Positions 1 through 46,319 of a stretch of 64,000 bases of DNA are shown one piece after another. The DNA lies in NCBI GenBank assembly GCA_036172245.1, contig JAYWIR010000123.1:1-64000 (forward strand), read 5' to 3'. The notes below the pieces were generated by a model. It was not told where the DNA came from. It saw nothing but the letters and a program-made list of their open reading frames with translations, and ran no database searches. The stretch's first letter is position 1, and the number at the start of each line of letters is the position of its first letter. This DNA is from Raillietiella orientalis (taxonomy: Eukaryota). The translations under genes and the position numbers were made by a program.

Positions 1-1102
1 TCGGAGGAGGAAATGAGGTCGGACCACGACGACGGGGATTCGATGTCTACGGGGTCTCGCGACTCTTCTCTAGAGGCGGTCCTGACCAAACAGGATCCTC
101 CAATCTCCACCACAAACACCGACGGACCAACTGCTTGCGAGGAACAGCCCGTCGCAATGGACACACAACTCCCGCCTTCTGAACAGCAGGTAAAGCCCGG
201 GAAGCAACCATAAACACACCAACACGTGTACTCTCCTTCTGTCGGCGGCTGCGCGTAATCTGTTAAAACGTCATCGGGTTGCACGACGCCGGCAAGAGGA
301 GAGAAGTGGCCACCAGCCTGCGGAACTTCGACGTGGCGCTTCTGCAGGAAACGCACGTGCTCCACGCAGAGTACGCAAAGGAAATCGAACGGATCGAAGG
401 CGGGCGGCTTATATACGAGAAAGGGAGACCGCACCCGCGTTGTGGCTTTCATGCTAAAGCCAGTCGTCGTTAATGCGCTGCCCGACGTGCACTTCAACGG
501 GGAAGGTCAGATCATGCAGCTTGTTGCCAAGTGGTCCGAGGCCATCGACCTCGTCGTGACCAACGTGTACGCGCCCGGCGCGAGCCACAGGCGCGGGGAA
601 CACACTGCGTTCTCCGATGGCCTGCGACGAGATTGGCTGGCCGAAGCAGACATGCGAAAGGCGCACCTCATTGCCGGGGACTTGAACGTCCGCCTGCTGG
701 TAGGTGCGGCGGACATTCGCGCGCAGCTGGTCAACAAGATGTGCGCTGCCATCCACGCGCGCAACTTGTTGGCCGGTGACGCCGGGACGGATACGAGGAT
801 CGACCACATGTTCTTCGACAACCAACTGTGTTCGCGGGCTGGAAATCGAGGGGCAGTGCCATCCGAACTTTCCTATCATCCCCGGCTCGTGCTAGGAATA
901 CACCTGCGATGTAGAGGTCCACCCTCCACAGCGTGGCATCTGCCAATGGATTGGTTGCGCCTCGCAGGAGCAGCGCAACATCTTCGCTCGTTCCTGTAAG
1001 GCTTCCATCTGCAGTCACTCGCGGTCAGAGACGACTTGAAGAGCTCAGTCCGCGAGTTCTGCTACCAGTTTCCCATGAACCGTCTTTCTCCAGGTTTCGG
1101 CG
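1..1102 (+). mobile_element. L1/Tx1-like LINE copy Z, 5' part: ORF1 tail and frameshifted APE endonuclease, broken at the GFG site
   Basis: ORFs 279-473 and 442-999 carry APE motifs LLQETH, TNVYAP, HLIAGDLN, IDHMF. The reading continues as REFCYQFPMNRLSPGFG up to the insertion junction at 1102/1103. Confidence 0.9.
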
Positions 1103-1696
1103 TTATCACCCGGGTGCGCCCGGGGCGTTTATTAATAAACTCTACATGCGTGGTACAAGGCAACAGCAAGGCCGTAAACACAGGACCTGTCAGGACACCG
1201 GGACGCAGCCCGGCGTGGCACTCCCCGAGAGCGAAATGGGATGAGGGGAAGAAGCAAAAAGAAAAATAAAGACATAAAATACAAAAAGAGTTTGGAGGGC
1301 AGGGTAGGTATCACTGGTCGCTGTGAGGAGGGCCCATCCTTCGAAGAAAGCCCTCGAGGTCTCTCCGCATATATCCAAGCTGGGCCATCCGGCAGCTCTC
1401 CGCAAGATGCGTTGTGCATACTGGATGACATTTCTCGCCTGTGGACTCACTCCTTCGTTGTTGGCGTCGCTCCATGCCGCCACGAAGCCACGGACGCAGC
1501 ACAAGGCTGCGATGGCTGCGGCTGGCTGCAGTGCGTCCTCCACGAAGAGGGGCCGAAGAACGTCTCTGGGGGTGCTGCCCGTAGGGAGCCCGAGGGTCGT
1601 CCCGAACCGTTCCCAAAGGGGTCGGAGGGCAGCACAATCGACAATAAGGTTGGGAAGCGACTCCTTCTCCCCGCAACTGTCATACGCAGGATCCAG
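1103..1696 (-). mobile_element. 3' end of LINE copy A (ORF2 C-terminal zinc finger region, 3' UTR, terminal hairpin)
   Basis: Minus-strand DPAYDSCGEKESL and ALQPAAAIAALCCVRG are homologous to B 10840-11222. It ends AATAAACGCCCCGGGCGCACCCGGGTGATAA (reverse complement of 1103-1133). Confidence 0.85.
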
Positions 1697-1910
1697 GTGC
1701 GGCTGAGAAGAGGAACGGCTGAACTATAGACGCCTATCCCCATCGTCCTCCCCAATTGATTTATTTATTTTCCCCTCCCCCCCGTTCCGTACTCTCTGAG
1801 TGCCCGTCCTGCGTGCCGGGGAATCTACTCCCCATCTTTTTTTCCCTTGCCTGGGAACACGGTTCCCAGATGTTTTTTTAATAAATGTTCCGTCGCAACC
1901 GGGTAATAAA
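1697..1910 (+). mobile_element. Short 5'-truncated LINE 3' end (subfamily also present at 47479-49440)
   Basis: Similar to the reverse complement of 47479-47690. Ends AATAAATGTTCCGTCGCAACCGGGTAATAAA. Confidence 0.75.
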
Positions 1911-2720
1911 CGTCAACGCTGCATTCTCTTGAAGACTCGCTACCTTGCTTGTTTTTATTTTGATATGCGAGCGGCTTTTCAAGTCGGGGTTCTTTTTTAG
2001 ACTTTTTCTTTTTCGTTGTTGCTGCCTGCCATTCAGGCTCCTGGAAGCTTTACTCTATTCTTTCGGCGTTTGCTGCCCTGATCTCCGCTGTGTCCTGGAC
2101 CGTGGGCGTGGGTTGCATAGCTTTAGCCGCAGTATTCGCCGCCAGCCTTTTTTGAAGAGGCCGGGAGAGTTTTTTTTGGTTCCTCGCGGAAACCACGTGC
2201 ACAGCGGATTGTGGGCACACCTCCCTCGTGTGACCGAATGTCCTGCATACTTTGCACTGTACGTTAGGGCACCTACTTTTGATGTGGCCAGACGTGCTGC
2301 ACAAGCCACAGTATTTGGGTTTCCCCACGTCACAGACCTCTGTTACGACGCTTTCGCCGCCGGCCACCAGTTGGTGGGGAAAAGTAGAGCCCTCGCGGAC
2401 GGTTGTGCGTGCAGCCGTGAGGCTGCATTTGACTTCAGTATAGTCCTAGAAAGGAATAGGCTTCTTAGACAGCATGGACCGTTCCTTGTTCTTTCAACGT
2501 GGCACGTACTTGGTCTTTCCGTATCGGCGATGTTTCTCCTAACAGGTAGACCACCATGCTGAGGTCCACCGTAGTGGGAAGGAGCCTGAGTGCCCCCAGC
2601 ACCACAGGGGTTTTTAGCAGTCGTTGGAACGACTCTGCATGTTTGCAGATGACCTCAACGTACTTAGCCCCGCTGCGGATGGTCATAGCGCTGAGCTCCT
2701 CTTTCTCGTCGGCTTTTTGG
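1911..2720 (-). pseudogene. LINE ORF1 (gag-like) fragment with two CCHC knuckles
   Basis: ORF 2050-2367 reads YCGLCSTSGHIKSRCPNVQCKVCRTFGHTREVC. Homologous to the ORF1 at 46399-47226. Confidence 0.85.
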
Positions 2721-4272
2721 AGCCTGACCTCCAATGGAGCGTCCCGCCTGCGCGAACTTGCAGATCTGCCGCTTGCTGCTCGAAGATTGCGTGAATCTCC
2801 TGCAGCAGGGCCAGATCGAAGTCGCGCAAGACGTTCGCAACCAATCGCTACTTCTCGTTGTCCTGCAGCCCGTTGACGTTTCAACAGGCCACTCGGACGC
2901 GACAGGAGAAAGCAAGACCGCGCATTGCAGCTACGGACATGGAGGTGCGTTCCTCGCCATGTCCGGCAAGGCGTCAGCGGGGAGCACGGCGGATGAGGTA
3001 GCGCAAGCGCAACTTGTCCCCGCCGCGCCGTTCGCGGCATGCTCGGTGGAGTCGAGGGCCATTGGCTCGAAGGAGCATCGGGAACCGTTCTTGGCATCAA
3101 GCTCTTGCTTGGCAAGTTCTGCTCTGCGCCAGCTCTGGCCTCGACCGGTGGCTTGGATAACCTTAGCTCTGACCTCGGTCTCCACCTCGGAGTCCGAATT
3201 CCGTGCGCGCGGCGGGAGTTCCGCTTGCCTCTTTTTTTGCTTGCAGCCCGGAACTGCTCCAGCATTCTTAGAGGCTGCCTTCGTCACTGATCCCCCTTTC
3301 GGGGTCACGGCTTCGACAGCTCCCCTCTCGCCGCGGGTGTTTGCGACGGCGCGCGCGGCGGCAGCAGAGGCTTTCTCTTGCACGTTTTTTGGCGCGTGGG
3401 GCTGCCACTCCACCCGGCCTACCTTTTTAATCGGTAAGTGGAAAGGATCGCGCGGTTTGCGGTCCTTCTTATTTCCCCCAACAAAGGTCCAGCCATCTTT
3501 GCCGCCTTATGGTTTGCCTCGGTTGAGCGCGTGGGCTTTTAGTGTCCTTCGCATCCTTTCCAAGTCCTCGGTTACGGCGATGGAGACCAGTGTCTCCTTC
3601 GCCTCGTCTGCCTTTTTCACCTCCTTTCCGGAAGGTGCGAGCAGAGTGGTAGTATTCTCGGAAGTCGAGCGAGGCTTTTCAGCGTTTCCAGGCGTCCGGC
3701 TCACCGTGGCCGGCTTGCATGTCTCGAGCAAAGGGGAGCGCGATTTCTTTTTGTACTTCCAGAGCGTGCCACTGTTATTTCTCTTCGGAGCAAGAGCGGA
3801 CGGAAGCGGTGGTTTCGCAGCCTGCCCGATGTTATCGGCGGGCGGGGTCGCTCGGGGCTTCACTGAAGCAGCTTGCTGAAGGTTCTTGTCCTTTTGCGTC
3901 GCCTTTATAGGAGCATTGCTCCCATACACGCCCGCGCAATCGGACTTCCTGCTTGTCCGTTGCGGAACTTCGTTCCCGCCGGATTTCTTACCCGACGACG
4001 TTGCGTATGGAGTCGACGCGGACGGCGATGTTGCGGGAAGGTTCCTCGCCCCCATCTCACGTTTTAGCTCGGCGCACTCGTTAATCGAGTGGCGGAGCAG
4101 CTTACAGTATCGGCAACGGCGTGTTGGGCACTTCCGCGGACGGTGGCCTTCCTTTTCGCAGTCGCTGCAAGCAGGGGTTTGCCCGGCAAACCGGAGATAG
4201 ACGACGACATCACCGAGGAGGATCTGCGAAGGCATGAAACTGCGGTCGTCCATGGTGACGCGCGCCGTGGCG
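2720..4272 (-). mobile_element. LINE fragment of another subfamily: ORF1 C-terminal half plus start of the endonuclease
   Basis: ORF 3507-4253 reads CSDCEKEGHRPRKC..CRYCKLLRHSINEC. ACxNVNGL and LLQEIH occur near 2790-2890. Segment 2720-3585 closely resembles 18012-18880. Confidence 0.8.
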
Positions 4273-4620
4273 ATTCACACCCGGATGTGCCGGGGCATTC
4301 ATTTCAGTGTAATAAAAATACAACTAATTGTTGCGTGGCGAATCCGAAGGTCCACTACTCCAAAACAGCTTGCTGGTTGCCGGCTCAATGCCGGTGATGT
4401 CCTTCCAATGCGCGAGGATGGGAAATAACAAACAAAAAGAAACAAAAAGTTAAAAAGTGAGTGGGGGGGGAACAGATGTTTCAGGGGTGGGAGGGCAGGG
4501 TAGGGATCACGTTGGGCGTGGACAGGTCTTCTAGATCCTATTAAGGATCCCCACAAGCTGAGTCCTTTGAGCGCATAAGTGGCGCCACTTGCAGACACTG
4601 CGCGCGAAAAGGCGAGTCCA
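4273..4620 (-). mobile_element. LINE 3' end fragment (3' UTR with terminal hairpin)
   Basis: Reverse complement shows GTGATCCCTACCCTGCCC after the stop, a pyrimidine tract, and ends AATGAATGCCCCGGCACATCCGGGTGTGAAT. Confidence 0.7.
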
Positions 4621-4649
4621 GCCTTACCGCTGAAAGAGACAGTAATCAT

Positions 4650-5811
4650 CGCCGGGGTGGACATAGGTAACAGGAGCAGAAGATCGTCGACATAAACACT
4701 TACGGCTCGCGTGCCGAGGCACGAGCTCGGCAAGGGGGCCAAAGTCACCCTGTACGCTCTCAGCACCAACTCAAATTAGGTGCTAAAGAGCAGGGGGTTG
4801 AGACTATCTCCCTGCCTTATGCCACGCCGCACCGGCACGCCATACACTTTGTGACCGCTGAAAAAGACGGTGAACATCGCATTCAGCCAGCAAGAGCGCA
4901 GGTAGGATATCAAGGAGAGTGGGAAGCCCATGCGACCCAGGAGCTCCAAGAGGAGTTCCTGGTCAACACAGTCGAATGCCTTATGGAGGTCGACTGCGAT
5001 CGCTAAAGCAACCTTTCCCGCATGAGGGTCCCTACCCTGTCCCGCTGGCTGCCCCAAAGTATGGTTACAAATTTTCCCTTTCTCTTCTGTCTTACTCCGT
5101 GCGAATGCATCCATGTGCTCGCGAAGAAGTGGTTGTCCTCCATACTTCGCCCGGGAACAGCGTAAGTCTGCTCCGGGCTAATTATGGAAATGGACACCTG
5201 CCCCAATCGGGACGCCCACAGCCCGGCAATCAACTTGGCGTCCGTGTTCACAATCGTGATCGGACGCCAGTTGCAAACTTTCCTGAGGTCTGCTCCCTTC
5301 GGGAGGAGCCTCACCCTGGCTGACCGAAACGAGGCGGGAACATCGCCTTCGTCTCGGATTCGCCTTGTCAACTGGAACACCAGGGCGGCCAGCTCTTCCG
5401 CGAAACTCTGAAAGAACTCCGCGGGCAAGCCGTCCTCCCCTGGCGCCTTACGCCTCTTGAAACTTTTGATACCGGCGAGAATTTCAGCGGTCGTGAAAGG
5501 CTCATCGAGGCTTTCCTCTTCTCCTCCCCAATCGCCACGGAACCACTCATGAGCAATCGCTTCGAGACGTCTCGTTCGGGTCATGTTTTGGCGCAAAGGA
5601 AGGAATAAAAACACCCCACGAGATTCCGTACCGCAAACGGGGACGAACGTTTCCGGCCCAGGTCATCCAGCATGCAGACTGACGCGGATTGCCTGGCTTG
5701 TCGCTCGGCTCCGCCGCGGTATTTGGCCATGCGACGGACATTGGGATTCCTCTCGTGACGAAACGCGTGCAAATACGCGCGTTCGTAGCGAGCTCCTTCG
5801 CCAAATCCCCG
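4650..5811 (-). pseudogene. Copy A middle part: ORF2 linker and reverse transcriptase (frameshifted, truncated)
   Basis: Motifs RGFGEGARYERAYL, KAPGEDGLPAEFF, NWRPITIVNTDAKL, DLHKAFDCVD, RGIRQGDSLNPLLF, YVDDL. Confidence 0.9.
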
Positions 5812-5908
5812 CTGTGGAGAGAGGACGTGCTTTTCCTGCGCTCCGCCTGCGTGGCAAAGCGAGTGGTTTCTTCTTGAGTGATTTGTGCGTGCACATCGTC
5901 GGTGTCCG

Positions 5909-7662
5909 ATGGCAGCGTTGCCAGAGTACACCGCGATGGAAGTAGGCGTTGGGGATCCTTGTTCTCCCCCACAGCCTACTGGATCAGGGGCATTCGCCCC
6001 GGAATCGTCCCCGGCGACGCCCAGGTCATGGATCGCCATGGTGGCAGCGTTTAGCGTTGAAGCCATGGCCGAGATGGAAGCCTACAGGAAAGCGGGGTAT
6101 AAACCCTTGCTAGTCTACAATGTAGGCAACCTTTTTGATGGGCGAACTGCACGCGCTTTTTCGAGAGCGTTGCAGAACGCCAACGTGTTAGAAAAGGATC
6201 TTGACGGTCTATCCGTGCTCAGCAAGGGTCAGCGCGTCGAGGTTGTGTGCAAGGACATCACCTTGGCGCAAAGCTTGATTACCACTTCGCTGAACGTGGA
6301 CGGACGCAAGATCCTACCAGTCACGATGGAACCCTCCGTAGTGGTCCATCTGACAGGGATCACCAGCCGCATGACACGGTCTGCGGTTGGTGATCAGTTA
6401 AGAAAGTATGGCGATGTTAACGCGCTATGGCCAAAGGCCACAATCTTCGATGGCTACGATAGCCTTTTTGGAGAACCGGCTGCCGCGCGTGTGACCATTT
6501 AGAAGGATAGTGGGCCTCCCCACAAACAAGAGGTCAATGACCAGGACGTAGACCTCTGGTACGTGGGGAAACCCCGCTTTTGTGGCTACTGCAATGCAGT
6601 AGGAAACTTGCGCAAGCGGTGCCCGAACATTGTGTGCCACTTAAACGGGGAGAAGGGACACGTGCGCCGCTTATGCCCTAAACGTCTCACTCCGGTGCCG
6701 CCTGCCGCAAAGAAAGCGCAGGCAAAACGCGGAAAACTGGTCGAAAGACCAAAAAGAGATACTGGCCGGCAGCAGCCGCTAGCCCCCGTTCCTCCCACAC
6801 AGGCGTCGGAAGAAAAACCTTACGAAGACGCGGGAGTTCAAAACGGCTGGCAGCTTGTCAAGGCCAGGAAGGACAAAAAGGTGCCCCCCGCGGAACCCGC
6901 GAAAGCGGTAAACAAGACAGCCGGCAAAGCGAAAGAACATGCGCCGCGCTCCAAGACCATGCGGGAATGTACGGTGGCACTGGAGCGCATAGCCGTTCCC
7001 GAGACTGCCACCCGGGGCGACGAGCCTTCCCTCGCCGTTTCCGCCGCGCCCGAGGTTCGCGACGACGAACCCTCTGTTTGCACAGAGGGTGAGCCGCGCG
7101 AAGCGCGCGCCGAAAGCGAAGACGCCGCGTTCGCGCAGGCGGCGGAGGAGCTAGCGGCCACGCTGGCCGAGCGTGAGAACTCCTCACGCAAGGCCTTGCG
7201 CAGGCCGGCTCCGCCGAAGAAGGCCCCCGCAGGTGAGTGCGACCTGGGGGCCGGAAGTGCATCCTCCTCGTCGGAGGCACCCCCCGGAAGAAGGGACGCA
7301 AGTCCCAAAAGCCGAGGAGGCGCTTCCCCTCCACGAGCGAGGAGGAGAAGCAGGAAGCCGACGGCAGCGTGGGAATCCCGAATGGGGAAATCCCACGCGC
7401 GGATGTTGTCGAGCAGGTCACCTCCATGGAGGAGGGTGAGCAGGGGGGCGAAGTCCTCCTTGCCGGCGCAAACGCTGTACAGCCCACCCTTATGGAGGAG
7501 GGCCAACAGGTAGGCGCGACCCCACCGGAGGATGACCCGCCCTACGCGCCGTCACCGATGGAGCAGGGGGACCAGGTGCTCGAGGCACCTGTCCCTCCTG
7601 CTCCACCTAGCGTACCGCCCCAACAGGTGGCAGACGCCGCAGAGCCGCTTTTCCAGGAATGA
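5909..7662 (+). pseudogene. Copy B ORF1 (gag-like nucleic-acid-binding protein), interrupted
   Basis: Starts MAALPEYTAMEV. Stop at 6500-6502, knuckles FCGYCNAVGNLRKRC and CHLNGEKGHVRRLC, frameshift near 7250, acidic/Pro-rich tail ending at TGA 7660-7662. Confidence 0.9.
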
Positions 7663-10600
7663 CACCTGGGCTCGCCAGTCGCCGTCGGATTCGCGCCGCC
7701 TGTTGGAACGTCAACGGGCTGCGCGACGACGGTAACAGGCGAGATACGGCCGACACCCTGCGTGAGCTCGACCTGGCCCTGCAGCAGGAGATCAACGTGA
7801 TCACCGCGGCAGACGCACAGGAGATCGAGACGATCGCGGGGGGTCGGTTGTATTGGCGATGCGGCCTCCGCAAAACCTGCTGGGTCACGTTCTTCGTGAA
7901 GCCGGCCATCGACGCTGCCGTGAAGGGCGTGCGCTTCGATGACGACGGTCGGGTCGGTCAGCTGATTCTCAGCTGGTCAGACTCGATCGAACTGATCGTC
8001 ACAAATGTGTACGCCCCCAGCGGTAAACAGGGATACAGCGACCGCACCAGGCTGCAGGAATCCCTGAAGCGCGACTGGCTGAAGGACACGAACGTGCGGA
8101 AGGCTCACCTGATAGCAGGTGATTTCAATCTCCGTCTGCTTACAGGTGAGCCAGAAACACAAGAGAACGCGATGAACGAGTTGTGCGCCGCCATGCGTGC
8201 GCGCAACTTGTTCGCGGATGATAGGGGAATGGTCCGTAGCATTGACCACGTCTTCCTCGACGCTGACCTGTGTTCACTGGTCGGGAAACGGGGCAGGTTT
8301 GCGTCAACGTTGTCGGACCATTCCCGGTTAATTTTCGAGATGCGGCCTCGCGACAAGGAACCGCCATCTAGAGATTGGCGTCTGCCGGGGGACTGGAAGC
8401 GACTTTCAGGTGCGAAGGAACACCTTCGCGAATTCCTGAGAGGCGTCATGCTCCAGAATCTCTCGGATTGGGACGTTCTCAAGACATCGGTCCGGGAGTT
8501 CTGCGAGCAGTTCCCCCTGGACCGCCTGCCTTCAAGATTCGGCGAGGGTCCTCGCAAACATTGGGCCTATTTACAGGCTCGTAGGTACGAGAGAACACCT
8601 AATGTCCATCGCCTGGCCGAATACCACGCCGGGGCCAAACGCCAAGCCTGGCAATCCGGGTCGGCCAGATTGCTGGACGACCAGGGCAGGGAATGTTCGT
8701 CCCAAGCGTCGGTACGGCATCTCGTGCGGAGTTTTTATTCCTCTCTTTACGCCAGGGAGCCCTCGGATCGAGACACCTCTCGACGCTTGCTTCCGGATGG
8801 CGCCCCGCCAATAGGGGAGGAGGAGATGGAAAGCCTCGACTAGCCTTTTACCACCGGCGAAATTCTCGCCGGTATCCAAAGACTCTAAAGGCGTAAAGCT
8901 CCAGGGGAAGACGGCTTGCCCGCGGAGTTCTTTCGGAGCTTCTCGGAAGAGCTGGCACCCCTGCTGCTTAAGTTGATCAGGCTGATCCGATACGAAGTCG
9001 ATGTTCCCGCCTCGTTTCGGTCAGCCAGAGTGAGGCTCCTTCCGAAAGGAGGAGACCACAGGGAGTAAAAGAACTGGCGTCCGATCACGATCGTGAATAC
9101 GGACGCCAAGTTGATAGCAGGGCTATGGGCTTCGCGTCTGGGGCAGGTGGCAGAATCCATAATTAGCCCGGAGAAGAGTTATGCTGTTCCCGGGCTAAGT
9201 ATGGATGCCAACCTCTTCTTCTGAAGCACATGGGTGCACCTGCAGAGAAGAGAGAAGAAGGGGATAGGAAAAGTCGGCAACCCCACATTGGTTCCACCAG
9301 TGGGAAAGTTAAGGGGGTCTTAGCGATTGCAGTCGCCATCCATAAGGCATTCGGCTGTGTTGACCAGGAACTTCTCTTGAAGCTCCTGGGTCGCATGGGC
9401 TTCCCAACTTCCCTGATTTCCTACCTGCGCTCTTGCTGGCGGAATGCGATGATTACCGTCTCTTTCAGCGGCCACAAGGTGTATGGCGTGCCGGTGCGGC
9501 GGGGCATAAGGCAGGGCGATAGCCTCAGCCCCCTGCTCTTCAGCACCTACTTTGAGTTGGTGCTGAGAGCGTACAGGGTAACTTTGGCCCCCTTGCCGAG
9601 CTCGTGCCTCGGCACGCCCGACGTGGCAGCGTACGCCGACGATCTTCTGCTCTTCTTGCCATTGTCCTCCCCGGCAAAGGCGGTCGGAGACTTCTTCGAT
9701 CTGCTCAGGCGCGGGACCGGACTGCAGGTTAACAGGGCGAAGTCGTCAGTGTTGCCAGCTGGAGCAACGTGGTCAGGGCAGCGGGACTGGGTCCGTCTGG
9801 GGATCCCCACGGTGAGGTGCATTAAGTACCTCGGTGTACCGTTGGGGGACTACTCCCCTGCGGAAGCGTGGTAAAGCTGCCTCCAAAAAGTCGAGACGGC
9901 GATCGGCCCGTTCCTGGAAGGCAAGTTTCACTTGCCGGAATGGGCCGCGGTTTGGAACGCCTTCGCGGCCCCCATCCTCCGCCTCTGTCTTTTTGTTTGC
10001 CCTTCCACTGTGGAATCGAAGAAAAGGACAAAGGACCTCCTCCGTATCGCCCTTTGGGGCAAGGGGAGGCCCCGTGTCCCTCTGAAGGACTTGTGCGCTC
10101 CGTGTCGGGACGGCGGTCTTGGCCTTCTGACGCTGGAGCGTGTGGAGAAGCAGCTGCGGTGGCGAACCATCGCCATCGCAGCGAAGATGTGGAGCACCCC
10201 TTGGTGTACTCCGGCCCGCCTCCTGGCCAGCCGTGTTTCCCGGTGCGATGGACTCGCGTCTTTTCTGTTGATCCGTGGCCGGAAGAAGCGAAGATGCGGC
10301 CTACTGCTCGGGCGCATGGCAACATTGGCCAAGGAGAACAGCTCGATGGTTTGCTGCCCCGCCAACTGTCCCGCCTGGCTGGAGGAGAATATTGGAACGT
10401 GGGAAGCGGTTAACCAGAGGAGCCACGAAACGTGGAATCGTCTCCGATGCACCCCCTACGCCCGCTGTACGCTGCGAAATCTCCTGAAGAGTCCAGCAAG
10501 ATGCACGTGGGCAGAGACGACCTGCCTAGCTATGGTGCTACTCTTCCTGAGGAGGGCACTTCACAGCAGCCGAACGCTAAGCTGGCAAGTCTCCTGCTGC

Positions 10601-11222
10601 ATCGAGGGACGCGAGAAGTTGATCAGCGGCTGGACAACAAGAGAACTGTGCGACGCCACTACACCGAGCGTCCAGCCGTGAGGACTAAGAAGTTGGGGCG
10701 AGCTGCTGGCCATCCCTATGGATGTGCTGCAGTGGCCCCCGCTTCTTTAGGAATCCAGGATCCTGCCCCTTAAGTGGAAAGAGTCCGCGTTGCTGTTGTT
10801 GCAACGCACGCCGCTCTCACTGGACAAGAGGAGTTGTGGATCCTGCGTGTGTCAGGTGCGGAGAGCGGGAATCTCTCTCCCACCTTATTGTGGACTGTGC
10901 TGCCCTTCGTCCCCTTTGGGAACGGTTTGGGACGATCCTCGGTCTCCCTACAGGCAGTTCCTTTAGAGACGTTCTTCGGCCCCTCTTCGTGAAGGACGCC
11001 CTGCAGCCAGCCGCTGCCCTTGCAGCCTTGTGCTGCGTCCGAGGCATCGTGGCGGCATGGAGCGAAACCAACAAGGAAGGAGTGGGTCAACACGCGAGAG
11101 ATGTCATCCCATATGCCCAACGCTTCTTGCGGAGAGCTGCTGGATGGCCCCAACTGGGGAATCTACGGATGGACCTCGAGGGCTTCCTTCAACGGATGGG
11201 CCCTCCGCTCAGCGAACAGTGA
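7659..11222 (+). pseudogene. Copy B ORF2: APE endonuclease, reverse transcriptase, C-terminal CCHC; several stops and frameshifts
   Basis: Motifs ACWNVNGL, TNVYAP, LIAGDFN, IDHVFL, SDH; RGIRQGDSLSPLLF, YADDL, KYLGV; CVRCGERESLSHLIVDC. Confidence 0.95.
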
Positions 11223-11401
11223 TCCCTTCCCTGCCCCCCAACCTCACTTGTTTGTTTGCTTTTTTTTTTTGTTTTTTTTGTTTTTCCCCATCCCCTTTCG
11301 CTGCCGGGGAGTGCCACGCCGGGCTGCGTCCCGGCGTCCCCGTAGATCCCGTGTATAAAGCCGTGAGCGGGGCTTGGTACCGCAATTGTAGAGTTTTTAT
11401 A

Positions 11402-11432
11402 AATAAACACCCCGGGCGTACCCGGGTGACAA
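11402..11432 (+). other. Family-wide 3'-terminal signal: AATAAA followed by a GC hairpin (representative copy)
   Basis: AATAAACACCCCGGGCGTACCCGGGTGACAA. Variants occur at about 15 element ends in the window. Confidence 0.85.
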
Positions 11433-14170
11433 CGCCGAATCCCCGGGGCAGACGTTGCACTGGGAACTGTTCGCAGAACTCCTGGAACGAGTCCTTAAAT
11501 AGGTCCCAATCCGCGAGACTCTGGAGGGTGACGCCTCGCAGGAATTCGCGAAAATGTTCTTTCGCTCCTGACAGGCGCGTTTAGTCCCCTGGCATACGCC
11601 AATCCCTGGATGGCGGTCCCTTGTCGCGCGGGCGCATCTCGAATAATAACCGGGAATGGTCCGACAGCGTCGATCCAAGTTCCTTTCGTTTTCCGACCCG
11701 TGTGCTCAGGTCTTCGTCGAGGAAGACGTGGTCCACGCTGTTGACCATCCCGCTTATTTCTGTCAACAAGTTGCGCGCGCGCATGGCGGCGCACAACTCG
11801 TTGATCGCGTTCCCCTGTGCTCCGGGCTGATCTGAGAGCAGACGGACGTTGAAATCCCCTGCTATCAGATGCGCCTTTCGCACGTCCGCGTCCACCAGCC
11901 ATTCGCGCTTCAAGGTTTCCAGTAACGCGTTGCGCTGCTGGTATCCTTGTTTACCGCTAGGAGCGAACACATTGGTGACGATGAGGTCGATCGAATCGGA
12001 CCATCTGAGAATCAGTTGGCCGATCCGTCCGTCGTCCCCAAAGCGCACGCCCTTGACGGCCGCGTTAATGGCTGGCTTTAGGAAGAACGCGACCCCACAA
12101 GTGTTGCGGGCGCCGCATCGCCAGTACAACCGCCGTTCCGCGATCGTTTCGATCTCCTGGGCGTCTTTTGCGGTGATCACGTGGATCTCTTGCAAAAGCA
12201 CCAGGTCGAAATCTCGCAAGGTGGCGGCTGTATCTCGTCTGTTTCCGTCGTCGCGCAGCCCGTTAACATTCCAACTGGCCGCGCGGATCCGACGGCGACA
12301 GGCGAGCCCAGGTGTTATTCCTGGGAACCTGGCGGTGGTGCTCCCGCCACCTTTTGGGGCGGGTCTCTGGACGGGGTTGGCGTCTTGCTCACCAACTGCC
12401 CATCCTTCTTACGTGCCGACGTCTCCGGCTGCCCGTGCGAAGGGGGTGTTGTTCGTACCTGTTGGCCCACGTCCATTGGTGCGGGTGGTTCAGGTTCGGC
12501 GGTTTCAGAGGGCATTGCTGACCCCTAGTTACCCTCCTGCATTGGAGTCGCCTTCTCGTCGGCTTCCGCACGTGGGTGATGCCCGACATGGGCTCCTACG
12601 CTCTCATCCACTGTTTCCTTCTCCATTGGATCCCCCTCGCGCGGAGGCGGAATGCACCTTCGGGGTTTCTGGGATTTTTGCCCCGCTTTCCTTGATGGTG
12701 CTTCCGCAGAGGAGGATGCACTTCCGGCCTCCCGGTCCGACTCACATGCGGGGGCCATTTTAGCCGCTGCCGGCCTACGCAACCCCTTTCGCGAAGGGTT
12801 TTCGCGTTCGGCAAGCGTTGCCGCGAGCTCCTCCGCGGCCTTCTCCAAGGCTGCGTCCTCGGTTTCGGGGATTTTTTCGTCCGGCTGACCCTCTTGGCAA
12901 GCAGGGGGCGGGTTTTCGCGCGCATTCGTCGCGGCGGGAAAATCGATCGAAGCCGTATCGCCTGCGGTGGTGTCAACGGGAACGTCAATGCGCTCCAGCG
13001 TAACCGTGCATTCTCGGAGAGTTTTTACGCGCAACACGGATTTAGCTTTTGTTCCGGCCGCCGCCTTCTCTCCTTTCTTCGGGACATGCTTGTCCTTTTT
13101 CCCATTTTTGGCTTTCACTAGCAGCCAGCCCTGTTCTCCCTCTGCGTTCTCGGGAAGATTTTTCTCCGATGCCGCTCTGGGAGCTTGGGTTATTGGCAGC
13201 TGTTCTGGGCCAGTTTCACGGTACTCCAATTTTTCTTTCCCCGCGCGTTTCCCTTGCGCCTTCTTGGCGGCCGAGGGAATCGGGGTGGGGCGTTTAGGGC
13301 ACAAGCGACGGACGTGTCCCTTCTCCCCGCACAAGTAGCATACGATGTTTGGGCACCTCTTTCGGATGTGTTTGACCGCATCGCAGTAGCCGCAATACCG
13401 GGGCTTGCCCGCATACCAGAGGTCTACCGGTTCTCCCGCGACCTCAAGTTTGTGGGGTAGCTTCGCTTCGTCTTTTGGGGTTACACGTGCTGCGGCGAGG
13501 CCCCCGAAGTGGCGTCTGTAGCCCTCAAAGAATGTGGGCTTCGGCCAAAGCGCGTCTACGTCCCCGTACTTGCTTAATTCGTCCTTCACTGCAGTGCGCG
13601 TCATGCGCTTGGATATTCCTGTCAAGTGGACCACAACCGAGTGCTCCATTGACACCGGGAAGGTCTTTCGGCCGTCCATGATCAGCGGGGTATTTATAAG
13701 GCGATCGGCTAGGCTGATGCTTTTGCACACCAGCTCAACCCGCTGCGCCCCGCTGAGCACGCACAGACCTTCCAGATCTTCCTCACGGACATTAGCATTT
13801 TTAAGCGCTCTGCTGAAAGAGCGCGCCGTGTTTCCTCCAAACAAAGGGCCTACCTTGTATACAAGCGATGGCTTGTATTCAGAGGCCCGATAGGAGGCTT
13901 CCTCGGCCATGGCCTCCGCACTGGGGGCGGCGACCATTTCACTCCAAGTCTTCGCCGGCTGCGAAGACGTTCCAGGAACTATTGCCCCAATAGCTGTAGG
14001 TCTTGTGGGAGGACTAGCCTCCCCCACAACTACATCCATCGCGGTGTCCTCTGGCACAACTGCCATCAGACACCGACGACCCACACTTTACACCTGACTA
14101 CACTAAAAGAACTCCGGGTGCTTCCCAGACAAGCGCTGGCGGAGTGACCAAAAAACACGTCCACCCACAT
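11433..14170 (-). mobile_element. Copy A 5' part: 5' UTR, ORF1 and endonuclease up to the GFG site
   Basis: Long ORF1, then EN ORF 11581-12219 (LLQEIH, NVFAP, LIAGDFN, SDH), ending QRLPRGFG at the B junction. Confidence 0.93.
12315..14066 (-). pseudogene. Copy A ORF1, nearly intact (open 14066-12525, tail in another frame)
   Basis: Starts MAVVPEDTAMDV and contains YCGYCDAVKHIRKRCPNIVCYLCGEKGHVRRLC. The tail ORF 12315-12515 ends GSQE*, like B ORF1. Confidence 0.9.
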
Positions 14171-17160
14171 CGGCTTTCGGCGAATTGCTGAGGAACTACC
14201 GGGCATACCACCACGCCCGTCTTTACTCTAAGACTCCCGACGTTCCACGCCTGGCGGAGTATAAAGCTGGGGCTGAGCGACAGACCTGGCAATCCGGATC
14301 GGCCATCTTGCTGGACGCCCAAGGCCAAGAATGCTCAGCTCCGGCGAGAATAAACCGCATCCTTCGGGACTATTACTCCTCCTTGTACGCGCGTAGAACA
14401 ACAGAGCGCGCTGTGGCGCAGCGCTTGCTGCCGCAAGGCGCCCTTGCGCTGCAGGAGGAGCAGGCACATCAACTCGAGGAGCCTTTCTCGATGGCGGAGA
14501 TCGTCTCCGCCATCGGAAAGCTCCGAAAGAGGAAAGCACAGGGGAAGACGGTCTGCCCGCGGAGTTCTACCAAGGCTTCGTGGCGGAGCTAGCCCCCCTG
14601 GTGCATCGGCTATGCATGCTGATCCGAGAACAAGGGGACGTCCCCAAATCGTTCCGGTCAGCTAGAGTACGTCTCCTGCCGGAAGGAGGAGACAATCGCA
14701 ACGTAGGCAACTGGCGTCCCATCACAGTAGTGAATGCGGATGCGAAGTTGCTTGCCAAGCTTTCAGCTGAGCGACTGGGACGGGTGGCGGAATCCGTGGT
14801 GAGTCCGGAGCAGACATACGCTGTTCCCGGACGAAGCATGGAGGCCAACCTGTTCCTTGCCAGTACATGGTGGCAGTTGCAACAAAGCGAAGAGCAGGTA
14901 GGTCGAGAGAATCCTGGATTCTCCTCTGACCAGGGAGGGGACGCCCTTCATGGGAGAGCCGCGCCCGGTGCTCTTGCGGTCGCAGTCGATCTGCGTAAAG
15001 CGTTCGATTGCGTCGACCAGGAACTGCTTCTAGAGCTCCTGGAACGCTTGGGATTCCCGGCCGTCTTCCGGGATTACCTGCGCTCCTGCTGGCTCTTCGC
15101 TCTTATAAACATCTCTTTCAGCGGCCGGCACGTGTACGGCGTGCCGATTCGGCGTGGCATAAGGTAGGGTGACAGTCTGATCCCCTTGCTCTTTAGCATC
15201 TACTTCGAGCTGTTGCTGAGGGCATACAGGGAGACTCTGGCAACCCTGTCAAGCTCGTGTCCCGGCACGCCTGCCGTGTCGTCCTACGCCGACGACCTTC
15301 TGCTCCTGCTCCCCGGGTCCACCCCGGCGTCGGCGCTCGAAGATTTCTTTGAGTTGCTGCGCCGCGGGACGGGCCTCGAGCTGAACAGATAGAAATCCAC
15401 AATCGCTCCTACATCACCACTACTTTCAAACAATACGGCGTGGGCCGGACGGCCGGACTGGATCCGCTTGAGGATCCCCACGGGCAGGTGCTTCAAGTAC
15501 CTTGGCGTTCCGTTGGGGGACTTCTGCGTTGCAGAAGCCTGGTCCGACCGTCTCCAAAATGTGGAGTTGGCGATCGGCCCGTTCCGGAACGGCAAGTTTT
15601 ACTTGCAGGAGCGGGCCGCGGTGTGGAACGCGTTCGCGGCCATCCTCCTTCGTCCCTAACTTTTTGTTTGCCCCGCCCCTCTCATCATACAGAGACAAAC
15701 CAAAGCCCTCTTGAGGACTGCCCTTTAGGGCACAGCGAGTTCGCGAGTCCGATTGAAAGACTTGTGCGCTCCACGCAGGGATGGTGGCTTGGGCCTCCTT
15801 ACGTTGGAGCGCATCCAACTTCAAACAACAATTCGAAAGTTAGCCCTTGCTGCTAGCTTATGGATGACGCCATTGTGCGATCAGGCACGGCTCCTTGCCA
15901 GAAGAGCAACCGGCTGCGAAGGATTGTCCTCGATCCTCGTGGCGTACCAGCGCAGCCTCTCCAACTGTGGTCCCGATTTGCGCCAGATGGTCGCCCTGAT
16001 GAGGGAGAATACCTGGATCTCCTGCAACCCCGCGAATTGCACTGCTTGGCTTCAGGAGTCAGCTCCCGCGTGGGCTAAGATCAACGGAACGAGCGAGGCG
16101 GAATACAACTGCCTACGACGAGGACCGTACGCTCGACAGCCCCTGCAGGATATTATCAAGACGCATCGGAAGTTTCTGTGGGCTTCTTACAGCCCCCTTG
16201 CCCCCGTTCTGTCCTCCCTAAAAAACAGTAGGAGCAGCAACGAGCTGGCATCGTGGGAAGTGTCCTGCCTCATCCGAGGCAGGTAAAAACCTTTAAAGGC
16301 GTGGACGACTCGGGAGCTCACGGACGCTGCCACCCCGAGCGTCCCGCCTCACGGACTTGCGCGCTGGGGAGAGCTGCTCGCAATACCTCCGGAGGAGGTG
16401 AAGTGGCCTTTAGCGTGGTGGGATTGCGGCACACTTCTGTCGAAGTGGCAGGAGACGGCGTTGCTATTTCTGCACTGGGGACTGTTGAGCAGAGCACGCC
16501 TGTCTCACTGGACACTGGGAAATGTGGATGCCCGCTGTGTCGAGTGCTGAGAAAGAGACACCTTCTTGCATCTCACCCTCGAGTGTGTCGCCCTGGATGG
16601 ACTCTGGAGTCGAATCGCCTCAATCCTCCATCTTCCAGTAGGCGACCCTAAGGAAATTTACCGTCGCCTCTTTCTGCGTGACGGCCTGCGCCCCGCTGCG
16701 TCTCTAGCAGTCCTCTGCTGCGTGCGCGGCATTGTGCAAAGGTGGCACGCCAGAAGAAGAGGCCCAAGATGCAAAGACGCCATCCACTGGACAACGATCT
16801 CTTTAGAGACGGCGACAAGGTGGCGTCTACCTTTCACGGTAAAAACTGAACTTGACTGCATCCTCAACAGGATGCGGAGGACCGCCTAAGGCGCCCAGTG
16901 ATCCCTTCCCTGCCCCCCCCTTCTCCCCATATAACTGAATCCCTCCACGTTATCTCTCTTTTTGTTTGTTTTTGTTCTAGTTTTCCCTTCCCATGCGCCT
17001 GGGGAATGGACCTAACCGGTCTATGCACCGGCAACCGACACGGCAAGCAAGGTGGGAGGACACAGTGTTTCCCCACAGAAAAAATCTTTTTAAAGACTTT
17101 ATTATCTAATTTTTGTAAAAAATTAGTATAATAAATGCCCCGGCATGTCCGGGTGACAAA
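14171..17160 (+). mobile_element. Copy Z 3' part: linker, RT, C-terminus and 3' end
   Basis: Resumes at FGELLRNYRAY. Motifs NWRPITVVNADAKL, DLRKAFDCVD, YADDL, KYLGVPLG, HLTLEC. Ends AATAAATGCCCCGGCATGTCCGGGTGACAAA. Imperfect TSD CAGGTTTCGGCG (1091-1102) / CGGCTTTCGGCG (14171-14182). Confidence 0.88.
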
Positions 17161-18960
17161 CGTCGGCCGCGCCCGAGCACTCCAGGCCCAGTTCGTCGAA
17201 CAGACAAGCCGCTCCCGACTACCAGACCGGGCGCTCGACCTTGGCCTTGTACTCCGCAAGGTACCGGACGTCCGGGCATCAAGAGAATTGGCAAGCCTGC
17301 AGAAACTCTTTGCTGTTGGCCACGCCTTCCCCGAATCCACGGAGAAGCAGGCGCAAGGGGGAATAGCTGCGGAACTCGCGGACCGATCTTTTCAGATCGT
17401 CCCAGTTTACGAGCTTTGGAACGGCGAATGTGCGGAGATGCTGGCGGAGGTGCTCCGCAGCAATTGGATTTCTCAACCAGTCTGCCGGCAACCTCCAGAC
17501 GTGCGTCGGAGGGCCCTTGCCAGGTGGGAGTAGCTCAAACTCCAGCCTGTAGTTGTCGAAAAGCTCGGCCGTCACGGAACCTTTTCGACCCACCCGACAA
17601 TGCAGGTGATCGTCGACGAACACATGGTCCGGCAAAGCACGCATCCCGGAATCGTCGGCTAGCAAATTCTAGACGTGCACGGACGCGCACACCTCGTTCA
17701 CCAGCCGTTTCTCCCGGCGACGGTGAGACTCCTCCGATAGCGCCTGGACGTTGAAGTCCCCGGCTACGAGGTGAGCCACGTCAGGGCCGGAGTTCCTCAG
17801 CCAGCGGTCGCGCAGTCTCTCGAAAAACTCCAGTTTCTCTATGTGACGCGCGGAGCTGCTCGTCGCGTACACGTCCGTGAGGACAAGGTTGATCGATTCG
17901 GACCACTTGGGAACAAGTTTGCCCACACGACCTTCCTCGTCGAAACAAACGCTCCGCACTGCTCCCTCTACCCTGCCCCGGACAAAGAATGCGACTCCGT
18001 AGTTTTTCTAGGAGCCTGACCTCCAATGGAGCGTTCCAACTGCGCGAACTTGCAGATCGGCCGCTTGCTGCTCGGAGATTGCGTGAATCTCCTGCAGCAG
18101 GGCCAAATCAAAGTCGCGCAAGACGTTGGCAACCAATCGCCTCTTCTCGTTGTCTTGCAGCCCGTTGACGTTCCAACAGGCCACTCGGACACGAGGATAA
18201 GAAGCGAGACCGCGCATTGCTGCTACGGACATGAAGGTGCGTTCCACGCCCCGTCAGGCGAGGTATCAGCCGGGAGCACGGCGGATGAGGTAGCGCAAGC
18301 GCTTCCTGTCCCCGCCGCGCCGCTCGCGGCTGGCTCGATGGAGTCGAAGACCATTGCCTCGGGCTCCGAGGAGCATCGGGAACCGTTTCCGGAATCGGGC
18401 TCTTGCCTGGCAAGTTTAGGCTTGCGCGCAGCCCTGGCCTTGACCGGGGCTTGGCGAGCCTTAGCGCTGCCCTCGGACTCCACCTCGGAGTCCGAATTGT
18501 GCCCGCGCGGCGGGAGTTTGTCCCGCCTCTTTTTTTGCTGGGAGCCCGGAGCTGGTCCAGCACTCTAAGAGGGTGCCTTTGTCGCCGATCCCCCTTTCGG
18601 GGTCACGGCTTCGGCGGCTCCCCTCTCGCCGCGGGTGTTTGCGGCTGTGCGCGCGGCGGCAGCAGAGGCATTTTCTTGCGCCTTCCTTGGCGCGCGGGGC
18701 TGCCTCTTCTCCCCGCCTACCTTTTTAATCGGGAAGTAAGAAGGATCGCGCGGTTTGCGCTTTTTCTTTTTTCCCTTAACAAAGGTCCAGGCATCCTCGC
18801 CGCCTTCTGGTTTGCCTCGGTTGGGCGCGAGGGATTCCAGGGTCCTTCGCATCCTTTCCAAGGCCTCCGATACGGCGGTGGAGTTCTAGGAGTGAAGCAT
18901 CCTGGTGCTTCACTCCTGCAACTGTACCTTCATTGTCGCTGTACTGACGATGCATTGCCC
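17161..18960 (-). mobile_element. LINE copy Y fragment: ORF1 tail, endonuclease and linker
   Basis: Motifs VACWNVNGL, LLQEIH, HLVAGDFN, DHVFVD, RGFGEG. Confidence 0.88.
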
Positions 18961-18974
18961 GCAACACCTGGGGG

Positions 18975-21960
18975 GTCGTGTTTTTAGTAAAGCTGGCTAT
19001 CGATGCTGTCGTGAAGGGCGTGCGCTTCGACGACGACGGTCGGGTCGGTCAGCTGATTGTCAGCTGTTTCGATTCTATCGACCTGATCGTCACGAATGTG
19101 TACGCCCCGAGCCAAAAAAGTGGGATAGAGCGACCGTACTAGGCTGCTGTAAACACTTTATCGCGAATGGCTGGCCGATACGAACGTGCAGAATGCACAC
19201 CTGATAGCTGGGAACTTTAATCTCCGTCTGCTGTCAAGGGCGCCCGAAGCACAAGAACGCACGGCCAACATGTTATGCGCTGCCATGTGCACGCGCGACC
19301 TGTTGGACCACGCTGAGGGAATGGACCGCATTATACACCATGTCTTCCTGGATGCCGACCTATGCCCACGAGTCCGCAAACGGGGAAGAGTGGCGTCAAC
19401 GCTGTCGGACCATTCCCGGTTAATCGCAAAGGTATGCCCGCGCGACAAAGAGCCCCCGTTGAGGGACTGGCAACTTCCTGAGGACTGGACGCGGCTCTCA
19501 GGTGCGAAGGAACACCTTCGTTAATTCCTAAGAGGTGTCACCCTCCGGGATCTCGCTGACTGGGACCTGTTTAAAGAATCGGTCCGCGAGTTCTGCGAGG
19601 AGTTCCCTTTGGACCGCCTGCCCGCCGGATTTGTGGAACGGGCTCGCAATCATACGGCCTATTTAGAGGTTCGGCGGTGCGAGAACCTTCAAAAGTCCGT
19701 CGCCTAGCAGAATACCTAGCCAGGGGCGAGCGCCAAGCCTGGAAATCCGGGTCGGCAAGTTTGCTGGACGACCAGGGCCGGAACGCTCGGCCCCACCCAC
19801 GATCAGGCGACCCGTGCGACGGTTCTACTCCTCCTTGTACGCCAGCACACTCCCAGAGCAGGATGCCTCGCGGCTCCTGCTTACGGACGGAGCTCCGGCA
19901 ATAGGGGAGGAAGAGACGATTAGCCTCGACGAGCCTTTTACCACCGGTGAAATTCGCGCCGGTATTAAAAGGCTCAAGAGGCGGAAAGCACCAGGGGTGG
20001 ACACCCTGCCCGCGGAGTTTTTCCAATGCTTCGCAAAAGAGTTGGCACCCCTGGTGCTTCAGTTGACCAGGCTGATCCGAGACGAAAGTGACGTTCCCGC
20101 CTCGTTTCTTTCAGCCAGAGTGAGGCTCCTCCCTAAGGGAGAAGACCTGAGAACATTGAACAATATGCGTCCGGTCACAGTTGTGAACACGGATGCCAAG
20201 CTGATTGCTCGACTGTGGGCTTCGCGTCTAGGACAGGTGGCAGACTCCATAATTAGCCCGGAGCAGACATACGCTGTTGCCGGGCGAGGTATGGATGCCA
20301 ACCTCTTCTTCGCGAGCACATGGTTGCATATGCAAAAATGTCACCATGAAACAGCAACAAGGATTGACAACTCCACTTTTAAGCCGCCAGCTGGCCTGGG
20401 AACGGACACCTAAGCAGGAAAGGGGGCCCTAGCGATCGCAGTCGATATTTACAAGGCGTTCGACTGCGTCGACCAGGAGCTACTGTTGGAGCTTTTCGGT
20501 CGCTTGGGCTTCCCACCCTCTCTTGTCTCCTACCTGCGCTCTTGCTGGCGGAATGCGCTAATCAACGTCTCCTTTAGCGGACAAACAACGCACGGCGTGC
20601 CGGTGCAGCGAGGCATACCGCAGGGCGATAGCCTCAGTCCCCTGCTCTTCAGCACCTACTTCGAGTTGGTGCTAAGAGCGTACAGGGTGACTTTCGCTGC
20701 CTTGCCTAGCTCGTGCCCCGCTACGCTCGCAGTAGCTGCGTACGCCGACCAACTTCTGCTGATGTTGCCCATTTCTGCCCCGGCAGGCGCAGTCGAGGAT
20801 TTCTCCAATCTGCTAAGCAGTGGGAATAAAATAGCAGGTTAACAAGGCGAGGTCGTCGGTGGTACCGGTGGGTGCGATGTGGGATGGACGGCCTGAATGG
20901 ATCCGCTTGATGATCCCCACGGCCAGGAACCTAAAGTACCTGGGTGTCTTGTTGGGGGACTTCTGCCTCGCAGGAGCCTGGTCAGTTCGTCTCCGAAAGG
21001 TAGAGTTGGCAATCGGCCCGTTCCTGGAAGGCAAGTTCCTTCTGCCGGAAGGGGCCGCGGTGTGGAACGCGTTCGCGGCTTCCATCTTCCGCCCCTTGCT
21101 TTTTGCTTGTCATATCCCCCCCAGTTGAAGAAGAGTACTAAAGGCCTTCTCTGCATCGCCCTCTGGGGCAGCGGGAAGCCTCGTGCGCCTCTTAAGGACA
21201 TATGCGCTCCGCGTCGGGACGGAGGTCTTAGCCTCCGGACGTTGGAGCGCATGGACATACAGCTGCCACGGCGTACCCTAGCAATCGCAGCAAAGACGTG
21301 GAACACACCCTGGTTCGTCTCGGTCCGCAACCTAGCCAGCCGTGTATCGGGGACGCAAGGAATCGCGTCTTTCCTTCTGTGCCCCGGTCGGAAGGTCAGG
21401 AGATGCGGTCTTCTCCTTGGGCGCATGAAATCCCTGATGAGAGATAACGGCTGGACGGTATGCAGCCCCGCCAACTCCTCCGCTTGGCTGGAGGAATTTG
21501 TTGAGACGTGGGTCAAGCTCAAACTCAAGACTGGACGGGAATGGAACCGCCTGCGACTCGGCCCCAACGCCTTTTGCACCCTACGGACCACTCTGGAGTG
21601 TCCCGCCAGGAGCACGTGGACAGAAACCACCCCTTTGGCTGCGACGCTGCCCTTTCTACAAAGGGCTCTAACCAGCGTTCGGACGCCCAAGTGGCACGTC
21701 TCTTGCCGGATCGCAGGCAGGGAAAAGAAAATGAGCGGTTAAACCATGGGTGAACTGGCAGATGCCACGACCCCGAGTGCCCTCCCGCGTGGACTTGTTA
21801 GATAAGGCGAGCTGCTCGGCAACCCGATGAATGATCTGAAGTGGCCCCCAGTATTAATCGGATCAAGGCTTCTCGCGCTGAAGTGGCAAGAGTCGGCACT
21901 GCTGCTGTTGCACTGGGGTTTACCCTGCAACGCGCGCCGCTTCCACTGGGCCCGAGGAAG
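18975..21960 (+). mobile_element. LINE copy C, 5'-truncated ORF2 (EN-RT to HWARGS), interrupted by D
   Basis: Motifs HLIAGNFN, SDH, KAPGVDTLPAEFF, RGIPQGDSLSPLLF, YADQL, KYLGV, HWGLPCNARRFHWARGS. Confidence 0.9.
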
Positions 21961-27572: not shown

Positions 27573-27585
27573 GGACACGGGGAAG

Positions 27586-44892: not shown

Positions 44893-44894
44893 GA

Positions 44895-46308: not shown

Positions 46309-46319
46309 TCAAATGCTTC

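Follow-up and report, generated by a model that had tools for sequence, protein, structure and literature searches.

How does a retrotransposon come to be inserted twice, once inside the other, at the same nucleotide of a coding sequence that belongs to its own relatives? The question is posed by the first 64,000 nt of contig JAYWIR010000123.1 (positions 1–64,000, forward strand; hereafter the window) in the Raillietiella orientalis assembly GCA_036172245.1, where a long interspersed element (LINE) that we call copy Z is interrupted by copy A, which is in turn interrupted by copy B. Both breaks lie in the second open reading frame (ORF2), at the G-F-G codons of the linker between the endonuclease (EN) and the reverse transcriptase (RT). 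On balance we favour a family of L1-like LINEs that nicks DNA at a short motif, GGCG^AA (^ marking the nick), which some relatives happen to encode at those codons. The window has a G+C content of 52% and, by our annotation, consists of LINE sequence to 61%; all of its LINE copies carry stops or frameshifts in the lists of open reading frames. A search of the window against Rfam found no family, and Tandem Repeats Finder returned one trivial array there and no satellite. The region is probably a graveyard of L1-superfamily LINEs, built up by successive events of target-primed reverse transcription (TPRT).

Copy B served as the ruler for LINE positions (B followed by a number), on a map made with nhmmer and cross-checked with blastn and the raw sequence. 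Z, on the plus strand, stops at 1102 with ...CAGGTTTCGGCG, an antisense LINE 3′ end begins at 1103 with TTATCACCCGGGTGCGCCCGGG..., and Z restarts at 14171 with CGGCTTTCGGCG|AATTG. The target-site duplication (TSD) left by the entry of A into Z is 12 nt long (1091–1102 and 14171–14182, 10/12 matching), while that of B in A is 13 nt long (CGCCAAATCCCCG at 5799–5811 and CGCCGAATCCCCG at 11433–11445, 12/13 matching); by our arithmetic, matches this good at a fixed offset would arise by chance with probabilities of ~4e-5 and ~6e-7, respectively. The interval assigned to A, 1103–14170, starts with a minus-strand LINE 3′ end and finishes with a full minus-strand LINE 5′ end (B7). On the nhmmer map both hosts break at B2733, and the host coordinates on either side overlap by 12–13 nt: 181–1102 of Z corresponds to B1810–2733 and 14175–17159 to B2726–5621, and 14167–11433 of A corresponds to B7–2733 and 5808–4647 to B2724–3868. 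Read in the sense of the host, both junctions have the form GG(A/T)TTCGGCG | TT(G/A)TCACCCGGG (in full, ..CCCCGGGGATTCGGCG|ttgtcacccggg.. and ..TCTCCAGGTTTCGGCG|ttatcacccggg..), and past the second TSD copy the host goes on with AAGG.. or AATT... Because these junctions match, the two inserts, both antisense, occupy the same nucleotide of the G-F-G codons, with the first-strand nick at GGCG^AA on the host sense strand. If insertion were uniform, the probability that two independent events strike one nucleotide, on one strand, in an element of 5.6 kb would be ~1e-4. A first-pass annotation of this DNA had proposed two successive antisense LINE insertions at one nucleotide of ORF2, and the junctions, the common break at B2733 and both TSDs confirm it.

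The nest opens at the left edge of the window, beyond which the 5′ end of Z lies, with the EN part of Z's ORF2 up to the G-F-G codons (1–1102, plus strand, ~B1630–2733), recognized by nhmmer (181–1111 = B1810–2742), tblastn and direct inspection of the sequence. It closes with the left TSD copy, and the first-strand nick falls after 1102. The 3′ segment that follows (1103–1695, minus strand, B5026–5621) comprises the end of ORF2, the 3′ untranslated region (UTR), AATAAA, a stem-loop and GGGTGATAA, as found by blastn, nhmmer, motif search and folding. The middle part of A (4647–5811, minus strand, B2721–3868 by nhmmer), including one TSD copy, holds the linker and the first part of the RT, with RVT_1 matches in 4779–5177 and 5006–5662. 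B itself (5812–11432, plus strand), the innermost and youngest member, is a full-length LINE of 5621 bp identified from the list of open reading frames and from the Pfam domains Exo_endo_phos (1.6e-6; 28.5 bits against a cut-off of 24.5) and RVT_1 (2.9e-14). Beyond it A continues with the other TSD copy, the EN up to the G-F-G codons, ORF1 and a full 5′ end (11433–14170, minus strand; nhmmer 11413–14167 = B7–2753), and Z resumes at the duplicated 12 nt and runs to its own 3′ end (14171–17159, plus strand), with RVT_1 in 14397–15164 and a stem-loop at 17138–17159.

The first-pass annotation had cautioned that the 3′ half of A is rearranged and that its outermost piece is tied to A by the TSD. 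The rearrangement stands: A lacks B3868–5026, and nhmmer and tblastn resolve 1696–4646 in its place into a patchwork of other LINE pieces, namely a 3′-UTR fragment, T1 (1697–1909, plus), an ORF1-like piece, F′ (1910–2722, minus), the 5′ half of a LINE like copy Y described below (2715 to ~4270, minus) and a LINE 3′ end, K (4277–4604, minus). The segment 1103–1695 is nevertheless best assigned to A, because the TSD brackets the whole of 1103–14170, because B is by blastn the nearest copy both to this segment (81.6%) and to the middle part of A (79.1%), and because the sole alternative 3′ end, K, is very distant from B.

Were the two junctions made separately, or is one a copy of the other? It could be argued that there has been no recurrent targeting at all, and that the junctions are either copies of one ancestral junction, spread by segmental or inverted duplication, or an artefact of assembly. 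Duplicated composite junctions do exist in the window, at T1|F′ (1909), G|F (47481) and H|F″ (30823), where insert and host co-diverge, and 52612–56993 and 61723–57298 form an inverted repeat, 90% identical, with the same LINE insertion in either copy. In the nest, however, A entered Z and was itself entered by B, an arrangement that duplication cannot produce. Each event also has its own TSD, written in its own host's spelling of the codons, and the flanks have diverged unequally, by 35% between Z and A as against, for the 3′ pieces of A and B, 15% (coding) and 22% (UTR). In most comparisons third codon positions differ 1.5–2 times as often as positions 1 and 2; differences per codon position are 0.30/0.29/0.46 for the EN of A against Z and 0.043/0.048/0.069 for a known dead duplicate pair. 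Finally, the copies are only 64–82% alike, too different for an assembler to collapse or mis-join. Duplication or artefact is therefore very improbable; Z, A and B diverged while active and record two independent retrotransposition events rather than one duplicated junction. The unequal flank divergence, the third-position excess and the host-specific TSDs thus bear out the first-pass view that the three copies are too diverged to stem from a single duplicated event.

The composite junctions themselves, in each of which a plus-strand LINE 3′ end meets a minus-strand ORF1-like piece at the same break position, lie in the regions 1700–2700, 46690–47690 and 30614–31854. They were considered as three more independent same-site insertions and rejected, since insert and host parts co-diverge: for 1909, 47481 and 30823 the insert identities are 79, 70 and 66% and the host identities 73, 62 and 66%, and because the one series tracks the other the three look like old copies of one composite junction. 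The inverted duplication is 4.4 kb long (52612–56993 and 57298–61723), and each arm contains the same 1.4-kb 5′-truncated LINE of a more distant family, with the 3′ end GGGTGATGAA, which sits in a repeat that we call E with a TSD of ~22 bp (CTTTCACAATCCCGAGTTGCGC).

Repeat E also holds the event that separates the motif from its coding context. M is a 5′-truncated insertion with the same 3′-end type as A and B (44300–44730, plus strand), flanked by a 10-bp duplication of TTGTAGGGCG (TSD CGCCCTACAA at 44290–44299 and 44731–44740). Its empty target is preserved in a 98.7% identical paralogue as CCTA TTGTAGGGCG^AAGAAATG (38926–38937, plus strand), which places the nick between 38935 and 38936. 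The three nick sites thus read GGGGATTCGGCG^AAGG in A, CAGGTTTCGGCG^AATT in Z and TTGTAGGGCG^AAGA at the empty site of M; GGCG^AA is present at all three A/B-type events whose downstream target is visible, and the sites have little else in common. Neither nhmmer nor tblastn detected LINE homology in repeat E, and its 44 open reading frames contain no Pfam domain. It is unclassified, spans at least 5 kb (36016–41364), recurs at 42635–44898, 51370–56993 and 57298–62395 (four copies, 75–99% alike) and has been the target of two different LINE families. The fourth 3′ end of the A/B type, that of K at 4277, adjoins ..GTGGCG; its flanks, GCGCGCCGTGGCG and GCGCGCGAAAAGGCG (4260–4272 and 4600–4614), may be what is left of a TSD, in which case the nick was at GGCG^AG.

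The spelling of the G-F-G codons agrees with such a motif. Six copies cover the site, and GGCGAA is found only in Z and A, the two that are interrupted; the four uninterrupted copies read GGCGAG (B, at 8544/8545), GGGGAA (Y), GTGGAA (C) and GGTGAG (D). The visible 4079 bp of Z contain a single GGCGAA on either strand, the one at the G-F-G codons, and the visible 3890 bp of A contain four, all in the sense orientation. If GGCG^AA is needed, an element landing in Z must therefore use the G-F-G site, and one landing in A will do so one time in four. Since 61% of the window is LINE, nesting itself is to be expected (29 of the 41 GGCGAA sites in the window fall in LINE sequence), and a hexamer preference in such a neighbourhood brings the odds of the coincidence to ~1 in 4 to 1 in 20, not 1 in 10,000.

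The explanation that we favour starts from the anatomy of the elements, whose ORF1 retains traces of zinc knuckles, whose ORF2 comprises an APE endonuclease and an RT, and which end in AATAAA and a short stem-loop without poly(A). The endonuclease of the A/B lineage would nick 5′-GGCG^AA-3′, the freed 3′ OH would prime cDNA synthesis on the element RNA, and a second nick 10–13 nt away would give rise to the TSD. Some subfamilies spell the conserved G-F-G-E codons of the EN–RT linker ..TTC GGC GAA.. and would thereby expose the hexamer on their sense strand. Copies with the hexamer at G-F-G would be hit there, with the newcomer antisense, differently spelled copies would be spared, and the same lineage would land in GGCG^AA elsewhere too. 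The motif is there to be read at every one of the three events; that it reflects the specificity of the endonuclease, and that only the motif and the local density of LINEs steer the element to its relatives, we infer from the sequence.

Several observations weigh against this explanation. GGCGAA sites at G-F-G codons are occupied in two of two cases, as against 1 of the 39 others in the window (hypergeometric p = 0.0037); with a time-ordered universe of sites we estimate ~0.05 for the second hit. These figures hint at specificity beyond the hexamer, although it was the coincidence that singled out the occupancy finding in the first place. The 9-mer TTCGGCGAA is common to both hit sites, and its only other occurrence in the window, at 29443–29451 on the left edge of an old 5′-truncated LINE, is intact and unoccupied. 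A further hit comes from X1, the one run of Logan contigs that shared words with the window (0.12 of the sampled words; related, not identical, copies): in one X1 contig a C-like copy runs into an antisense 3′ end at the G-F-G nucleotide (joint 19623->1107, with 17 intervening letters, 13 of the host and 4 of the insert), and the host there reads ..TTTGATG (GGGTTTGATG), not GGCG. This joint was counted among the joints listed, so that it stands for at least one further hit and yields no rate. Orientation, too, is more uniform than the motif would have it. Each of the six independent insertions of one LINE into another that the window contains is antisense (A in Z, B in A, Z beside Y, both D and an 82-bp fragment in C, and G-type in F-type, counted once; two-sided p = 0.03), and with a sense-to-antisense ratio of GGCGAA in LINE sequence of only 19:10 the motif explains the antisense orientation only partly. 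Moreover, the visible events of the A/B lineage number only three or four.

These points raise the question of whether the lineage has evolved to home to its relatives. On that account its target would be an extended site in the EN–RT linker (at least TTCGGCG^AA plus context), older relatives would serve as a safe harbour, and LINE-only clusters would result, as with Zepp in green algae; it can call on the two in-window hits and the one in the related run at the same nucleotide, on the 9-mer identical in both hosts, on the contrast in occupancy and on the existence of target-specific APE LINEs in the Tx1 and R1 clades (PMC4640811). Set against it are the insertion of M in repeat E, which is unrelated and has only GGCG^AA in common, the intact TTCGGCGAA left unoccupied at 29443, the entry of Z, which has the same 3′-end type, into Y ~172 nt away at a different sequence, and a tiny sample chosen for the coincidence. 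Nor do the A/B-type events show the single target of strictly site-specific elements such as R1, R2 or Tx1L: two lie at G-F-G, one in repeat E and one (K) elsewhere. Homing to an extended site is unlikely in our judgement. We regard as doubtful the broader proposition that an L1-like lineage homes, always antisense, to the ORF2 sequence TTC GGC G^AA, each generation burying itself in, and splitting, an older relative, and we are just as hesitant about its corollary, that the lineage creates its own safe harbour and thereby LINE-only islands, perhaps aided by read-through transcripts with a complementary flank. The first-pass interpretation therefore survives in part, although its claim that the family targets a defined site in its own EN–RT linker is not supported as worded, and the suggested disabling of an older relative would presuppose a host still alive when it was entered. 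The interpretation gains from the nick GGCG^AA shared by both events on the sense strand of the host ORF2 and from one more antisense 3′ end at the exact nucleotide in the X1 contig; it loses from the presence of M in a non-LINE repeat, from the restriction of hits to GGCGAA-bearing copies and from the other nestings, which lie elsewhere.

Homing could also be achieved by the transcript rather than by the endonuclease. A master copy residing at a G-F-G site might make transcripts that run a few bases into the flank (CGCCGAA...); such a tail would pair with the nicked ...TTCGGCG-3′ of other copies, daughters would arise at the corresponding position and, like the master, antisense, and microhomology to CGCC would account for GGCG at non-LINE targets as well. 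R1 and R2 insertions are positioned with the help of downstream sequence in the transcript. CGCC follows each of the four 3′ ends of the A/B type, two related types have constant bases of their own (CGTC; TTC), another subfamily has used one site recurrently (D and the 82-bp fragment in C), and antisense orientation would follow automatically. However, no untemplated or flank-derived extra bases lie between the 3′ ends and the TSDs, and in M the CGCC belongs to the target itself, so that endonuclease specificity suffices. We judge read-through homing decidedly unlikely, and return to GGCG^AA as the probable common cause of both hits.

Nesting in the window is not confined to Z, A and B. The 3′ end of Z (17159) adjoins a further antisense LINE copy, Y (17160–18215, minus strand; nhmmer 17152–18215 = B1853–2910; Exo_endo_phos in 17672–18007), in the flank ..GGCCGACGT. 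Y reads G-F-G-E-G uninterrupted at ~17330, upstream of the break by the ~172 nt already mentioned; possibly it forms a fourth layer, of which only the junction at 17159/17160 falls inside the window, the other lying to the left of it. Elsewhere copy C (plus strand) is split near B5033 by a full-length copy D (21960–27572, minus strand), whose subfamily ends in GGGTGAAAAC, and by an 82-bp 3′ fragment (27585–27666, minus strand). A 12-nt duplication that ends in GGAA accompanies the break in three diverged copies (21948–21959, 27573–27584 and 27667–27678), which indicates that one nick site was used twice. Re-use of a single site is thus not peculiar to the G-F-G codons, and it fits regeneration of the nick site by the right-hand TSD copy. 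The break in C lies at the W-x-W-G codons before the C-terminal Cys/His motif. At 46250–46340 a head-to-tail LINE pair is found, in which a 3′ end (..CCGGGTGAAAATC, ~46309) is separated by a gap of ~16 bp from a full 5′ end starting at ~46326; this spacing would be expected if one target site had been used twice in the same orientation. An apparent hotspot of tblastn breakpoints at B4989 was rejected on comparison with the nhmmer map as an artefact of the start of the query open reading frame.

What kind of element is this? B contains an ORF1, an APE endonuclease, an RT and a conserved 5′ terminus, with several frame breaks, and its 3′ end consists of AATAAA, a stem-loop of 5–6 bp and GGGTGACAA, without poly(A). 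RVT_1 and EN domains are detected in A, Z and Y as well, as in other APE-type LINEs, and the CCHC knuckle in the ORF1 of A falls just under the Pfam cut-off (zf-CCHC, 20.5 bits against 20.8). A and B share the conserved 5′ terminus ..GGACGTG(C/T)TTTT.. and the 3′ AATAAA, stem-loop and GGGTGA(C/T)AA; a pattern for this 3′ end has four occurrences in the window, where shuffled sequences give an expectation of 0. The poly(A) or A-rich tail of the L1 superfamily is absent, each 3′ end running straight into its target. The stem-loops are not individually more stable than shuffled sequences (z −1.9 to +0.45), and it is their conservation that argues for them. The hallmarks of TPRT are all present, with TSDs of 13, 12 and 10 bp, truncated copies (M, T1 and the 82-bp fragment) and a constant 3′ end.

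The EN matches human L1-EN at 3e-4, and P0001, a protein 56% identical to the ORF2 in the window, matches human L1 ORF2p at 7e-40 and R2 proteins at ~1e-15. Its RT and EN being closest to L1-type proteins, we class the family as L1-like, a placement made by match scores rather than by RT phylogeny. Close relatives are scarce in public data. In a HMMER search of 1.84 billion representatives, a 526-aa ORF2 fragment (22248–23825, minus strand) matched 34 proteins at E <= 0.001, of which only P0001 is close; P0002 is an internally repetitive RT-fragment protein. Protein word searches gave no match for the EN plus linker at the ‘longer’ and ‘near’ lengths, and one, again P0001, for the C-terminal part of ORF2. 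A metagenome scan for the 3′-end pattern gave 12 loci, which were set aside as chance matches, all 12 being without blastn similarity to the window. Of the pieces of X1 placed on the window (n = 560), 10 were at least 99% alike and 332 less than 90%; most of the ‘opposite strand’ X1 joints listed reflect mosaic alignments of other copies onto Z and Y rather than inversions. No public RNA run sharing words with the window was listed.

Known systems resemble this one in part. Human L1 has an endonuclease with the loose consensus TTTT/AA. Our element is like it in its RT and EN matches, in TPRT with TSDs of 10–13 bp, in 5′ truncation and in a nick before AA, but differs in having GGCG rather than a T-rich upstream half, no poly(A) tail and an ORF1 with a remnant of a CCHC-type knuckle. 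Zepp, in turn, carries poly(A). Zepp and Zepp-like elements of the green algae Coccomyxa and Chlamydomonas are self-nesting L1-superfamily LINEs that form clusters of their own copies, the reported tandem arrays being mostly of 3′ ends; the nests Y/Z/A/B and C/D, in a window that is 61% LINE, show the same self-nesting, the differences here being a terminal stem-loop and no poly(A), full-length inserts in two cases, and antisense insertion at one coding nucleotide. A literature search for a LINE recurrently inserting at a fixed nucleotide of its own ORF2 gave nothing relevant among the papers listed, the original Zepp papers (1997, 2003) lying outside its reach. The Tx1 (Tx1, Keno, Mutsu) and R1 clades comprise APE LINEs with sequence-specific nicking, whose targets include other transposons and multicopy genes (PMC4640811). 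Our element shares with them the APE endonuclease and the tandem or repeated use of one site; their strict families keep to a single target, whereas here the targets have only a hexamer in common, an unrelated repeat harbours one of the copies, and another site was used by a sister subfamily.

On present evidence, we see here a new, poorly sampled L1-like lineage with the short nick motif GGCG^AA. Should homing prove true after all, a LINE would be using its own coding sequence as a landing pad, with a bearing on LINE-only islands such as the algal centromeric Zepp clusters and on competition among subfamilies, and those subfamilies that respell the codons (GGCGAG, GGTGAG) would be escaping kin. 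If the motif is sufficient, a six-base preference met by chance in a conserved codon pair mimics precise self-targeting, which calls for caution in the interpretation of nested repeats. The nick site GGCG^AA is a testable prediction for a LINE lineage that public protein sets hardly cover.

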